DNA of 64,000 nt from Escherichia coli (GTDB lineage: Bacteria > Pseudomonadota > Gammaproteobacteria > Enterobacterales > Enterobacteriaceae): assembly GCF_013122565.1 (NCBI RefSeq), contig NZ_CP053258.1; one strand, 5' to 3'. How positions within the stretch are numbered: position 1 is the first letter of the stretch; each line of letters starts with the position of its first letter. The notes beneath the pieces were generated by a model that did no database searches, was not told where the DNA came from, and saw only the letters and a program-made list of their open reading frames with translations. A program made the position numbers and the translations under genes. Of the stretch, positions 17,514-22,637 are shown piece after piece.

Positions 17514-17520
17514 TGAGAAG

Positions 17521-17547
17521 ATGCCCGGCGCGGATCCTGCCGGGCAT
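17521..17547. terminator. GC-rich hairpin between convergent cirA and the island transporter (possible bidirectional terminator, no U-tract)
   Basis: atgcccggc gcggatcct gccgggcat: 9-bp perfect stem. Confidence 0.35.
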
Positions 17548-17571
17548 AATGCCAGAAATTCGGTTCTGGAT

Positions 17572-18894
17572 TTATAACCGATGAAATTTTGCCAGTAAGG
17601 CCAGTGAAAATGTTGTCAGCAAAATGGTAATGACGGCGTAAATATACACGCCTGACCATTCCCAACTGTTTTTCACCATAATAACTGGAAGCCCTGCCAT
17701 TGCCGCGCCTACATAACTAAATAAGCCCCTGAACCCAGTAATGGAACCTGCCGCATCTTTATGCGTAACATCAAGACATCCGACAGCGAATAACATATGT
17801 GGTCCATATAATGCAAACCCCATGATTGTAAAAAGAATAGCCGTTAATGTGTAGGAGACGTCCTGCACCAGCGGCACGAGAACGATGCAAATACATAAGG
17901 CGATGGCAAACATTAATCCGGTCATCCAGCGGTTACTTTTAAACATAAAATCGGACAAGTACCCCGCCAGTAATCCCCCTGCAAGTCCACCTGCTTCAAA
18001 CCAGGATATAATGGAGTTCGCTTTAATCAGGCTCCAGTTATGAACCTGAGAATAATAAATTTGTGGCCAGTCATTGAGGATGGTGCGTGCAATATAGACT
18101 GACATATCCCCGAGGATAATCAGCCAAACTAATGGGTTGGTAAGAATATATTTAATGAAAATTTGCCAAAAACTCAGATCTACCGGGCTTGCTTTAACTT
18201 GTGCAAGTTCTGTCGGGTCGTTGCGCCACTTACCTACGTTAGGCAAACCGAGTGTGCCAGGACGATCTTTAATCGTAAACAGGGCAACAACCCCCATAAT
18301 CAGCGATATTACACCCGGAACATAAAAGCCCATTTTCCAGCTGCCACTAAAAGCAATGGCAAAGCTTGTCAGGAGAGGCGCAAGACTACCGCCAATATTA
18401 TGCGCCGCTTCAACAACTGCCCACCAGCGCCCGCGTTCATTTTTAGAAAACCACGAGGCCATAATTTTTGCCATCGGCGGAAAACTGGTACCCTGAAGAA
18501 TAGCATTAAGGCTATACAGGATATAGAACGCAGCAACGCTGTCTGAAAAACCGAAAAGAATGTTAACAATACCGACGCCAATAAGTACGGGGCCGGTCAT
18601 TGCGCGTGGGTTAATTTTATCGACTAACATGCCCCCTACAAACTTCATGGAGCCATAAAGAATGTAAAAGACCGACGACATGATAGCGAAATCTTGTGCG
18701 GTTAATGACGTATCCGTCAACATCGCCGGCATGGCCGCAGAGAAATTCTTGCGGGTTAAATAAAATACGGCATAAGAGATAAATACAGAGGTGATGATTT
18801 CAATACGAAATTTTTTATAAGTATGATCAACTTCTTCTTTCGGTTTGACCACTGGTTGGTCGGCCTGGCTGAAAATAAATTTTTTCAAGCTCAT
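17572..18894 (-). CDS. Organophosphate:phosphate antiporter family MFS transporter (GlpT/UhpT/PgtP-like); accessory
   Basis: 440-aa 12-TM ORF; N-terminal VDHTYKKFRIEII and YLTRKNF, WFSKNERGRWWAVVEAAHNIGG and YGPHMLF closely parallel GlpT/PgtP signature regions recalled from E. coli/Salmonella; RBS aaggaaa before the ATG. Confidence 0.8.
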   Translation of the reverse strand: MSLKKFIFSQADQPVVKPKEEVDHTYKKFRIEIITSVFISYAVFYLTRKNFSAAMPAMLTDTSLTAQDFAIMSSVFYILYGSMKFVGGMLVDKINPRAMTGPVLIGVGIVNILFGFSDSVAAFYILYSLNAILQGTSFPPMAKIMASWFSKNERGRWWAVVEAAHNIGGSLAPLLTSFAIAFSGSWKMGFYVPGVISLIMGVVALFTIKDRPGTLGLPNVGKWRNDPTELAQVKASPVDLSFWQIFIKYILTNPLVWLIILGDMSVYIARTILNDWPQIYYSQVHNWSLIKANSIISWFEAGGLAGGLLAGYLSDFMFKSNRWMTGLMFAIALCICIVLVPLVQDVSYTLTAILFTIMGFALYGPHMLFAVGCLDVTHKDAAGSITGFRGLFSYVGAAMAGLPVIMVKNSWEWSGVYIYAVITILLTTFSLALLAKFHRL

Positions 18895-18926: not shown

Positions 18927-19814
18927 CTATAGTTTTTCTTCTATAAAAAAGAGAAGCGACTCGAAACCATTAAAATTAATCTGGTTAGTAACTTTTTCCC
19001 GGGTTTTAGGTTTTGCTTTCCATGCCACGCCATACCCGGCATGCAGAAGCATAGGAATATCATTAGCGCCATCTCCGCAGGCAATGATGTTTTCACGACA
19101 AATAGATAACTCTGTCGCCAAATTTATCAGGGTTTGCTTTTTCTTTTCTGCATTCATAATGGGAAAGGTAATTTTGTCAGTTAATAGATCTTCCTGAATG
19201 CGTACAGAGTTAGAAAATGCAAAATCAAGTTGATATTTTTCTTTTAATCTCTCAGTAAAAATATCTAAACCGCCGGATATAATTGCCGTCTTGAATCCTT
19301 TTTCTTTAAGAATGGGAAGAATAGTTTTAAGACCTGGTGAAAGGGTCATCTGTTCACAAACCTGATGCAATATATCTTTATGTGTTCCTTTAAGCATGCC
19401 AATTCGGCGGGTAAAACTGGTATCAAAATCGATTTTTCCTTCCATCGCTTCACGGGTCAGCGCGGTGATTTTTTCAGAGATCCCGAGTCTACGGGCTATT
19501 TCATCGACGCCTTCCTCTTCAACAAAGGTGGAATCCATATCAAAGGCAATAATTCCCTCAGCCGGTAAGTCCGTAGGTTTGCGGAAAAAATCAAAATGAT
19601 GATGATCAGCACGGTGACGTAAACCAGCATAAAAATCAGGATTGGTTACATCATCTGTTAATACTAGCTTTAGATACTCTTTATTTATTTGCTCACTGTA
19701 ATTCGTTGTTAACGAAAACACCGAGGATGAAACCTTTAAATGTTGCAAATAATGTTCCAGACATTTTTTGGTGATGTCGATGCCTGTTGGCGACAAGAAA
19801 TAAATAATCGTCAT
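18927..19814 (-). CDS. Phosphoserine-phosphatase-like HAD hydrolase (SerB paralogue); accessory
   Basis: 295-aa ORF with HAD motif I FDMDSTF, EAMEGKIDFDTSFTRRIGMLKG and GDGANDIPML...AWKAKPK closely paralleling E. coli SerB catalytic-domain motifs; no signal peptide. Confidence 0.8.
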   Translation of the reverse strand: MTIIYFLSPTGIDITKKCLEHYLQHLKVSSSVFSLTTNYSEQINKEYLKLVLTDDVTNPDFYAGLRHRADHHHFDFFRKPTDLPAEGIIAFDMDSTFVEEEGVDEIARRLGISEKITALTREAMEGKIDFDTSFTRRIGMLKGTHKDILHQVCEQMTLSPGLKTILPILKEKGFKTAIISGGLDIFTERLKEKYQLDFAFSNSVRIQEDLLTDKITFPIMNAEKKKQTLINLATELSICRENIIACGDGANDIPMLLHAGYGVAWKAKPKTREKVTNQINFNGFESLLFFIEEKL

Positions 19815-20023
19815 TTACCGCTCCTTTTTATCTGCAATGATTATAATAAGGTTTCGTAGCGGCTGATGTATCTAACAATCACAGTTGTGAATGTTAAATA
19901 AAAGATAAAAAAGTGCTTTTTTTGATACCCTGAAATAATAAGATACTAAAAGTACCATTTTTGATACCTTTGCCAGGATATAACGAATAACGAGTTTCAA
20001 CGTTGAAGGAATCATTTACAAAA

Positions 20024-21376
20024 ATGGAAAGCTGCTTAGATATATTCAAGATAGTTATAGGTCCATCCAGTTCCCGCACTGTCGGGCCAATGCGTGCGGC
20101 TTATAATTTTGTCTCACAATTGAAACAGCGAGAAATGTTACCTTTGTTGCGGAAAATTGATGTCGAACTTTATGGCGCACTGTCATTAAGCCGCAAGTGC
20201 CATAATGTTGATGTGGCGATTTATCTCGGTTTGCAAGGTCACTTACCTGACAGCGTTGATATCCGCATGGAAATGTCCGCCATCAGGCGTGCGGAAACTG
20301 AGGCGACGCTGGAAGTTATGCCTGGTGTCAACGTTGGTGTAGCCATTATTTCTAATCCACAGGCGCACCCGGGGCATCCTTATGCGATGACATTTCGTGC
20401 CAGAGATGACTGGTTTACGCTTTATGAAGAAACCTGCTTTTCTGTCGGCGACGGTCAGGTTCAAAAAGCGGGAGAGGCGATGATTCCCTCCTCAGTCACT
20501 CCACATCCTTTTGAATTCCAGAACGCAAACGAATTATTAAAACTTTGTCAGCAAAACGGATTATCTGTTGCGGCATTAATGATGAAAAACGAACTACACT
20601 GCCAGACTTCTGATTTTTTGCATGACGATCTCAATAAAAAATGGGAAGTAATGAAGGATGCGGTCTATCGCGGGATGCATACAGAGGGATTACTTCCTGG
20701 TCCGTATCAGGTTAACCGTCGTGCCTGTGCTTTATATAAATCGTTGCAGGCAAAGGGGTTTACCAATGACTTCCTGACTACGATCAATTGGGTCAATACT
20801 TTTGCCATTGCGGTGAGCGAAGAAAATGCTGCAGGTGGACGCGTCGTGACAGCACCCACCAACGGCGCGAGCGGTATTATCCCGGCCGTACTGTGTTGGT
20901 ATGACAAATTCATTCACGAGCTTGATACTTACTCCGTTACCCGCTTTTTTCTGACCGCCGGTGCCATAGCCATTCTGTTCAAAAAAAATGCCTCTATTCT
21001 GGGGTCTGAAGTTGGATGTCAGGGGGAAATAGGCGTTGCCAGTTCAATGGCGGCAGCAGGATTAGCAGAACTTATGGGCGGGTCAGTGACTCAGGTACTC
21101 AGCGCGGCAGAAATTGCGATGGAACACCATTTAGGTTTGACCTGTGATCCAGTTGGCGGGCAGGTACAAATTCCTTGTATTGAACGAAATGCTATTTCAG
21201 CCGTGAAAGCTATCAACGCAACGACGATGGCTTTGAGTCGCATAAGCGAGCCGTGCATTACGCTGGATGAGATAATTTCCGCGATGTATGAAACCGGAAA
21301 GGATATGAGCGCTAAATACCGGGAAACTTATCATGGCTGTCTTAGCAAATTGCAGCCAAGAAAAAAGGACGCGTAA
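20024..21376 (+). CDS. L-serine dehydratase (Fe-S, SdaA/SdaB/TdcG family paralogue); accessory
   Basis: ORF-track 20003..21376 starts at a TTG; ATG at 20024 ([23 protein letters not shown]...) aligns with the SdaA N-terminus [23 protein letters not shown]; conserved [25 protein letters not shown] and LTCDPV..GQVQ.PCIERNA blocks. Confidence 0.85.
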
Positions 21377-21377
21377 G

Positions 21378-21767
21378 ATGAAATACAATACCATGAATAA
21401 CAACGAAATTATTTTATCTCTGTGCGCACGTATTAAAGAAACGCGGATCTCATTATCATTGACCCAGCAGCAGTTAGCCGATCGTGCATTGGTGGGCATT
21501 GCAACGGTCAAGCGGATTGAAAAGGGGGGAAGTTTAAATCTTGATACCCTCATTTCTCTTCTGCGCGCGCTGAATAAATTGCAAAATCTCGATGCCATAT
21601 TGTTCGAAGCAGAAATGCGTAATTTCAATGAAAATACTTCCAGCGGCGAAGGGGCAGGGCGACTTCAGGTGCGCCAGCAACTGACAGATTTAAACCAGAA
21701 GTCTCCAGCCCCGCACGCAGATGACCGTGATTTTAGTACGGCGCTGGAAAATACTCTTTGCTGGTGA
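21378..21767 (+). CDS. XRE-family (Cro/CI-type HTH) transcriptional regulator; accessory
   Basis: ORF-track 21333..21767; ATG at 21378 (MKYNTMNNNEIILSLCARIKETRISLSLTQQQLADRALVGIATVKRIEKGG) begins 1 nt after the dehydratase stop; typical HTH_XRE signature. Confidence 0.75.
   Translation: MKYNTMNNNEIILSLCARIKETRISLSLTQQQLADRALVGIATVKRIEKGGSLNLDTLISLLRALNKLQNLDAILFEAEMRNFNENTSSGEGAGRLQVRQQLTDLNQKSPAPHADDRDFSTALENTLCW

Positions 21768-22637
<870 letters not shown>

Follow-up and report, generated by a model that had tools for sequence, protein, structure and literature searches.

The question raised by this locus is what reads the repeated motif that lies between two divergent operons of Escherichia coli, at positions 19815-20023 of the window (the whole 64-kb stretch of DNA analysed here). 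These coordinates span the entire 209-bp gap from the ATG of a minus-strand open reading frame (ORF) of 295 aa to the ATG of a plus-strand ORF of 450 aa. The original prediction, a divergent AT-rich control region, is upheld: the GC content of the gap is 0.31, compared with ~0.50-0.58 in the flanking core genes and 0.33-0.50 in the cluster itself, and the gap separates the two operons of a four-gene cluster. The leftward operon encodes a SerB-like phosphatase and an MFS transporter; the rightward operon (sda-xre) encodes an L-serine dehydratase and, at 21378-21767, a small regulator of the XRE family. Our answer is that the two repeats are probably an operator pair for this XRE regulator.

Two conserved boxes in the divergent gap

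The 11-mer TTTTTGATACC is found at 19919-19929 and again at 19958-19968, a start-to-start distance of 39 bp exactly as originally predicted, and it occurs nowhere else in the window. A repeat search shows that each 11-mer is the 3' end of a longer repeat of 21 nt, AAAAGTGCTTTTTTTGATACC and AAAAGTACCATTTTTGATACC (19909-19929 and 19948-19968), in which 18 of the 21 positions are identical. Dinucleotide-preserving shuffles of the 209 bp contain an exact non-overlapping repeat of at least 11 nt in 1.2% of cases and an 18/21 repeat in 0.05% (P ~0.0005). The perfect identity of the two 11-mers is strain-specific. In six other E. coli, copy 2 ends in GATATC; copy 1 ends in GATACC or GATACT, and in its left part GTAC stands where the window has GTGC. 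A third GATAC had also been noted between the copies, and the repeats had been described as evenly spaced. The third GATAC does exist, at 19942-19946, but Salmonella, Citrobacter and Scandinavium have other sequence in its place; as it is not conserved outside E. coli, it was rejected as part of the element, and the evenly spaced triplet therefore falls with it.

Close relatives of the XRE protein are narrowly distributed (Citrobacter, Salmonella enterica subsp. arizonae and diarizonae, Scandinavium and metagenomes), and every orthologous locus carries the same four genes in the same arrangement. We derived a footprint from ten non-redundant orthologous intergenic regions, drawn from E. coli, Salmonella arizonae, Citrobacter, Scandinavium and three metagenome contigs. 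Conservation falls in five blocks, the ribosome-binding site of the serB-like gene among them, and column identity outside the conserved blocks is 0.53. The repeat region resolves into three features:

19909-19928, plus strand: box 1 (distal), AAAAGTGCTTTTTTTGATAC; matrix score 25.0; column identity 0.86 over 10 orthologues
19929-19947, no strand: inter-box spacer; column identity 0.58; constrained in length, not in sequence
19948-19967, plus strand: box 2 (proximal), AAAAGTACCATTTTTGATAC; matrix score 29.5; column identity 0.90 over 10 orthologues

The conserved functional unit is a 20-bp imperfect palindrome, and not the 11-mer by which it was first recognised. Its consensus is AAAaGTATnnTTTTTGATAy, containing a 16-bp core GTAT-N8-ATAC that takes the form GTATCA-N4-TGATAC in box 2. 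In the window the core palindrome of box 2 reads GTACCA-N4-TGATAC (19952-19967), and the core of box 1 reads GTGC-N8-ATAC (19913-19928), with a strong right half, TTTGATAC, and a weak left half. Box 2 is self-complementary at 10/16 positions (outer pairs 5/6; random AT-rich sequence, 4.7), and boxes from Orbaceae (Gilliamella and Zophobihabitans) average 11/16. Such apparent dyad symmetry fits a dimeric helix-turn-helix (HTH) protein.

The placement of the boxes is as constant as their sequence. Measured from the serB-like ATG, box 1 starts at 103-105 nt and box 2 at 142-144 nt in every orthologue, and the two boxes are 39 or 40 bp apart in 14/14 Enterobacteriaceae sequences compared. The interval from box 2 to the sda ATG varies among orthologues in both length and sequence. 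Judged by this comparison, the boxes appear to be under purifying selection relative to the surrounding non-coding DNA.

The XRE regulator as candidate binder

We credit the boxes to the XRE regulator because the box pair recurs beside homologues of this protein that were picked by protein similarity alone. A genome scan seeded with XRE peptides fetched homologues that are 36-50% identical from Mangrovibacter, Budvicia, Limnobaculum, Leminorella, Erwinia oleae, Zophobihabitans and many Gilliamella. At these distant loci, xre stands tail-to-tail with an operon of an sdaC-like permease gene and sda (for example, L024 5986-9516 and L018 6001-9682). The permeases are of the Trp_Tyr_perm/HAAAP type where Pfam matched, and the exception to the arrangement is Erwinia oleae, in which sda lies ~3 kb off, behind other genes. 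Wherever we looked, in the window, the orthologues and the distant loci, xre invariably lies within or adjoins the regulated cluster; in the window its start codon is 1 nt past the sda stop, and in the orthologues it follows by 1-11 nt or overlaps by a few.

A 20-nt matrix was trained on the Enterobacteriaceae boxes only. In the window it scores box 1 and box 2 at 25.0 and 29.5 and the next best site in the 64 kb at 9.7. Among the distant XRE loci it recovers a same-orientation pair 38-41 bp apart in 12 of 20, Gilliamella and Budviciaceae among them, always upstream of the permease gene, and it finds none in 54 unrelated loci of the same fetch (~520 kb) and none in block shuffles. The sdaC-sdaB locus of K-12 (5.5 kb), which has no xre neighbour, likewise holds no pair, and the best score there, 4.6, falls outside the sdaC upstream region. 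The Gilliamella boxes, TAAAGTATCAATTTTGATAC, start ~113 and ~152 nt from the permease ATG and, with respect to the leftward operon, are oriented as in the window. The original prediction had called the repeats operator sites, plausibly for the XRE regulator. That claim now gains conservation of sequence, position and spacing, together with box pairs beside distant XRE homologues, and it leaves the XRE protein as the best candidate binder by an association that is strong but circumstantial.

The structure model of the regulator (129 aa) comprises five helices over residues 8-88, with a predicted local distance difference test (pLDDT) score of ~90, and residues 90-129 are disordered. The segment GIATIKR[IV]E lies in the third helix (residues 41-48), which we take to be at the recognition-helix position of XRE-family folds; it is invariant across 17 homologues, in line with the unchanged half-site TATCA/TGATA. 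The tail is poorly conserved except for a basic R.R motif and a Trp at or near the C-terminus that is invariant in 17/17 homologues, and it resembles antitoxin tails that fold on a partner. Among proteins of solved structure, small XRE proteins, 434 Cro and HipB come closest in sequence; the HipB entries include HipB(Lp) 8ezt and HipB 9u9g. The best NCBIfam match is to a Y4mF/HipB-type subfamily, below its cut-off, and the family is unnamed in both NCBIfam and Pfam.

Box-like sequences also turned up at several other places. With a 25-nt matrix, the runners-up in the window score 12.4 (19418-19442) and 10.3 (19535-19559; 9.7 with the 20-nt matrix); both are on the minus strand within serB-like coding sequence, ATTTTGATACC at 19419-19429 lies inside one of them, and they are probably chance matches. 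Upstream regions in Budviciaceae carry up to four box-like sites, arranged in two pairs. On a metagenome contig of GC 0.65 (JACCDG011115735.1; L095 ~750-960), several AT-rich (A/G)GTATCAAAAnTGATAC repeats occur in an ORF that directly precedes a gene for a DnaB-like helicase. Their appearance is that of iterons at a phage or plasmid replication origin, and they share the half-site of the boxes.

Promoter geometry and possible modes of control

Two further conserved elements lie on the serB-like side of the boxes:

19840-19847, minus strand: ATTATAAT, predicted leftward -10 (TATAAT, 19845 to 19840); column identity 0.93
19878-19898, no strand: conserved block ATCACAGTTGTGAATGTTAAA, also written ATCACAGaTGTGAATGTTAAA in the alignment; column identity 0.89; TCACA (19879-19883) invariant in 10/10

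The minus-strand -10 (TATAAT or TACAAT) is the sole promoter candidate that occupies the same alignment column in 10/10 orthologues. Its -35 is weak and variable, and a strict consensus scan of 19700-20150 returned no canonical sigma-70 promoter. Taking this -10 as a guide, transcription of the serB-like and MFS genes would start near 19833, which would put the TCACA block at ~-45 to -65 and the box centres at ~-87.5 and -126.5. This block probably binds a second factor or serves as a promoter element. At the equivalent position Gilliamella carries AAAGTGATCnnnATCACA, which is a near-perfect CRP site; there the CRP site would be centred ~41.5 nt upstream of the predicted start (from a TGnTATCAT -10) and the boxes would lie near -96 and -136. 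CRP sites typically have at least 8/10 core matches. A count of core matches to TGTGA-N6-TCACA over the whole intergenic region of the window, made with the core and not a full CRP matrix, gave a best value of 7/10, and the invariant TCACA falls outside those placements. At the same conserved block, GTTAAATAAAAGATA (19893-19907) agrees at 12/15 positions with the ArcA consensus, and we regard this as a lead only.

On the rightward side, a matrix scan for the sda promoter found no position common to all orthologues. The TTGATA of box 2 (19961-19966) matches the -35 hexamer at 5/6 positions in the direction of rightward transcription, and a -10-like hexamer follows it by 16-17 bp in 5/10 orthologues. 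The candidates for the sda-xre promoter are one with its -35 in this TTGATA and one with a TAAAAT-like -10 abutting box 1, and box 2 may well overlap a -35. Either candidate would set a box on the core promoter, the classical arrangement for a repressor and for autoregulation.

We envisage that one HTH dimer would bind each 16-bp core, recognising the half-sites TATCA/TGATA around a T-rich centre with a 5' A-tract. The fixed centre-to-centre distance of 39-40 bp argues for joint action of two dimers, which may be coupled over about four turns of A-tract-rich DNA through cooperativity or DNA bending. Since box 2 overlaps the likeliest rightward -35, its occupancy would repress sda-xre, and the regulator would thereby control its own synthesis. 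The box pair, standing upstream of the second conserved site, may also modulate the leftward promoter of the serB-like and MFS genes, and a serine- or phosphoserine-derived signal might relieve repression. Our preference for repression over activation is slight and amounts to a guess, because a site upstream of the leftward promoter, where the boxes lie, would be just as fitting for an activator.

Several observations weigh against assigning the boxes to the XRE protein as its operators. The link between the two is one of guilt by association. At the chosen threshold, 8 of the 20 distant XRE loci lack a matrix pair; by eye, most of these contain box-like sequences that depart from the pattern through degeneracy, opposite orientation or a different spacing. 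The left half of box 1 is poor in E. coli (GTGC or GTAC), with 4-6 of the 16 core positions self-complementary. Nor is the half-site unique: of the 21 loci recovered from metagenomes by a search for the box pair, just 3 were orthologous, Salmonella arizonae-like clusters, and the other 18 comprised phage-like iterons, marine phage-like contigs and a eukaryotic satellite. The pattern used was stringent, requiring an exact match, and missed Gilliamella. The box-pair pattern alone is thus not diagnostic of XRE loci. The protein shows no recognisable sensor or ligand-binding domain, with HTH the only match in Pfam and NCBIfam and a disordered tail in the model. Finally, the boxes lie far upstream (-87 and -126) of the only robustly conserved promoter, the leftward one, unlike those of a classical repressor, and neither the strict nor the matrix scan confidently located the rightward promoter.

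It is possible, if unlikely, that the boxes bind some other chromosomal factor common to Enterobacterales and Orbales, such as a member of the CRP/FNR family, IHF, Lrp, ArcA or H-NS, and that the XRE protein acts elsewhere or nowhere in this region. The low GC content of the gap, the genuine CRP site that adjoins the Gilliamella boxes and the presence of the half-site in unrelated systems would all agree with this, as would two sequence resemblances, since FNR recognises the half-site TTGAT and the IHF consensus begins with WATCAA. Yet a comparison by eye with consensus sequences gave no good match of the boxes to CRP, FNR, IHF, Lrp or the Pho box, CRP alone being scanned by script as well. 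The FNR site is TTGAT-N4-ATCAA, relative to which the box halves are inverted, and the IHF consensus is WATCAANNNNTTR, whose TTR is absent from the boxes. Moreover, the K-12 sdaC promoter region, which is under global factors, has no box, and in the loci scanned the matrix pairs occur only where there is an XRE homologue. A core-promoter origin of the repeats is less probable still. On this account they are a duplicated -35 (TTGATA) or an extended -10 (TGnTAyyyT) with a T-tract resembling an UP element, forming tandem rightward promoters for sda. TTGATA does match TTGACA at 5/6 positions, TGATAT or TGATAC followed by TAT.. resembles an extended -10, and half of the orthologues have the suitably spaced hexamer downstream of box 2. 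But the 20 conserved bp, with the dyad partner GTAT and the 5' A-run, go far beyond the needs of a hexamer, the operon downstream of the Gilliamella pair is leftward and the system has no rightward gene there, and the strict scan calls no promoter. An operator that overlaps a -35 is in any case the usual design for a repressor, and the two roles are compatible.

The remaining explanations we consider very improbable. One is that the repeats arose by chance or by recent duplication in an AT-rich spacer and have no function. The shuffles do produce exact 11-mer repeats at a low rate, and the 11-mer identity is peculiar to the strain; the 18/21 repeat, however, is far rarer in the same shuffles, and the boxes are kept across five genera and two other families where the spacer has diverged. 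These comparative data effectively refute a chance or neutral repeat. Equally improbable is an RNA-level element, a leader structure or riboswitch in a long sda 5' untranslated region, although reading ATTATAAT on the plus strand would place the boxes within the transcript. We rejected a cis-regulatory RNA on finding no Rfam match at E values up to 1 and a fold of 19905-20030 no better than that of shuffled sequences (z = 0.28). In Gilliamella, moreover, the operon that follows the boxes is encoded on the opposite strand.

Operators for the XRE protein thus remain our preferred reading, and comparison with known systems helps to place them. In phage lambda, OR consists of three adjacent sites ~23 bp apart with the consensus half-site TATCACCGC, and cI has a C-terminal oligomerisation and cleavage domain. 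The present system resembles lambda OR with cI/Cro, and phage 434, in its small HTH_3 protein, its dyads of 14-17 bp with TATCA/TGATA-like half-sites, its multiple putative operators between divergent units and the location of the regulator gene in one of the operons presumed to be controlled. It differs from lambda OR in having two sites 39-40 bp apart and in serving a metabolic cluster instead of a prophage; and the XRE protein has a disordered tail (in the model) where cI has its C-terminal domain. HipB operators have the form TATCC-N8-GGATA, with several per promoter. The likeness to HipB and to antitoxin-type XRE proteins lies in the short HTH domain with a disordered C-terminal tail and in TATC...GATA dyads repeated within one promoter. 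Unlike HipB, the regulator here has no adjacent toxin gene, its neighbours are catabolic, and the spacing is TATC-N6-GATA in place of TATC-N10-GATA.

The serine systems of E. coli offer a second set of comparisons. In K-12, sdaCB, sdaA and tdc are regulated by CRP, Lrp and TdcA. The cluster shares with the K-12 sda genes the iron-sulfur (Fe-S) L-serine dehydratase family, and in Gilliamella the XRE-associated operon is itself an sdaC-like/sda operon with a CRP site. Unlike the cluster, K-12 sdaCB has neither an adjacent xre nor a box, and the boxes therefore seem to mark a separate, dedicated regulatory layer. The variable dsdC-dsdXA locus for D-serine is a further accessory cluster for serine catabolism that only some E. 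coli carry. It combines a transporter and a deaminase with a dedicated regulator acting on a divergent intergenic region; it differs in its LysR-type regulator, its substrate, its chromosomal site and its type of operator. The MFS protein scores strongly against the UhpT/UhpC, PgtP and GlpT families. Those systems are governed by two-component regulators (Uhp, Pgt) or by GlpR (GlpT), and the cluster's transporter is under neither control and falls below every equivalog cut-off.

The gene cluster and its chromosomal site

The four genes are assigned as follows:

17572-18894, minus strand: MFS transporter of the organophosphate:phosphate antiporter type (UhpC/PgtP/GlpT-like), 440 aa, second gene of the leftward operon; NF008661 UhpC 2e-126, TIGR00881 PgtP 1.5e-101, GlpT 2.9e-82
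18927-19814, minus strand: SerB-like HAD phosphoserine phosphatase, 295 aa, first gene of the leftward operon; TIGR00338 serB 2.6e-62, above the curated cut-off; Pfam HAD families; annotated serB in RefSeq E. coli
20024-21376, plus strand: L-serine ammonia-lyase (L-serine dehydratase), Fe-S type, 450 aa, first gene of the rightward operon; TIGR00720 sda_mono 1e-163, above the cut-off; SDH_alpha and SDH_beta domains
21378-21767, plus strand: XRE-family regulator, 129 aa, second gene of the rightward operon; HTH_3 2.9e-9

In NCBIfam the MFS protein reaches no equivalog cut-off of the UhpC, PgtP or GlpT models. An MFS transporter, a SerB paralogue and a serine dehydratase in one cluster suggest uptake and breakdown of a phosphorylated serine compound. 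In the pathway we propose, such a compound (most simply O-phospho-L-serine) would enter through the antiporter, the SerB paralogue would dephosphorylate it, and the resulting serine would be deaminated to pyruvate. If this is correct, the pathway would yield carbon, nitrogen and phosphate from one substrate. In the literature that could be searched, we found no description of this cluster or its cirA-yeiG site, of XRE control over sdaC/sda, or of genes for phosphoserine transport and catabolism.

By themselves, the boxes are a standard bacterial control region, an operator pair between divergent operons. The comparison supplies more: a concrete motif and a likely target set for an uncharacterised XRE family of gut Enterobacterales and bee-gut Orbaceae. 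It is tempting to speculate that the XRE protein and its boxes represent an unnamed, ancient family of serine-catabolism regulators spread over Enterobacteriaceae, Budviciaceae and Orbaceae, with a two-operator architecture and a signal received perhaps through the disordered, Trp-terminated tail (from a protein partner, for example). In E. coli, Citrobacter and Salmonella arizonae, this family would have been recruited to an undescribed pathway of import, dephosphorylation and deamination. As a whole this proposal is tentative and somewhat less likely than not.

The cluster had been called an island, and this designation is not supported: it lies beside yeiG-folE across genera and without mobility genes, as befits an old syntenic locus. 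It adjoins yeiG-folE in E. coli, Salmonella arizonae and diarizonae, four Citrobacter species, C. koseri and Scandinavium. Outside E. coli, the other flank is a true cirA (77-87% identical) only in Salmonella and Scandinavium; its place is taken in Citrobacter and C. koseri by a TonB-dependent receptor that is 36-42% identical and encoded on the opposite strand. In the window the interval between cirA and yeiG holds only these four metabolic and regulatory genes and no mobility genes. Reading the junctions against the empty site of K-12 showed no repeats, without a formal repeat search. The E. coli copies differ among themselves by up to 6% in this region. These features fit an old locus that was differentially lost, or one exchanged by homologous recombination through its flanks, and do not fit a recent foreign insertion. 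H-NS silencing had been called likely for the AT-richness of the gap; H-NS binding is plausible for DNA of 31% GC.

Identity to the window proteins in the orthologous loci is 59-62% for the SerB-like protein, 73-76% for Sda, 72-75% for XRE and 91-92% for the MFS transporter. Divergence between E. coli and Salmonella or Citrobacter is thus uneven across the cluster; for comparison, YeiG is 87-91% and FolE 95-96% identical. The high value for the transporter may reflect either unusually strong constraint or recombinational exchange of that part of the cluster. In its folE-yeiB part the window is as much as 99.1% identical to E. coli. Among complete E. coli genomes, 89 of 5426 (1.6%) carry the cluster, always on the chromosome and in one copy per genome. 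In C. koseri it is apparently common, with the XRE protein of the cluster indexed on 472 contigs.

One further feature of the gap stands outside the conserved element:

19996-20007, no strand: perfect 12-bp palindrome TTCAACGTTGAA; invariant in 7 E. coli, absent from other genera

Situated between box 2 and the start of sda, this palindrome overlaps what is probably the ribosome-binding region. At the cluster boundaries (17514-17571 and 21767-21768, compared with K-12 in L116), the 31-bp cirA-yeiG gap of K-12 contains a terminator hairpin whose sequence is altered in the window, the xre stop abuts the yeiG stop with no spacer, and the last yeiG codons differ between the window and K-12. In E. 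coli 90-3040 (L002 3326-4679), the L-serine ammonia-lyase gene of the cluster is annotated as frameshifted, and the other three genes are intact.

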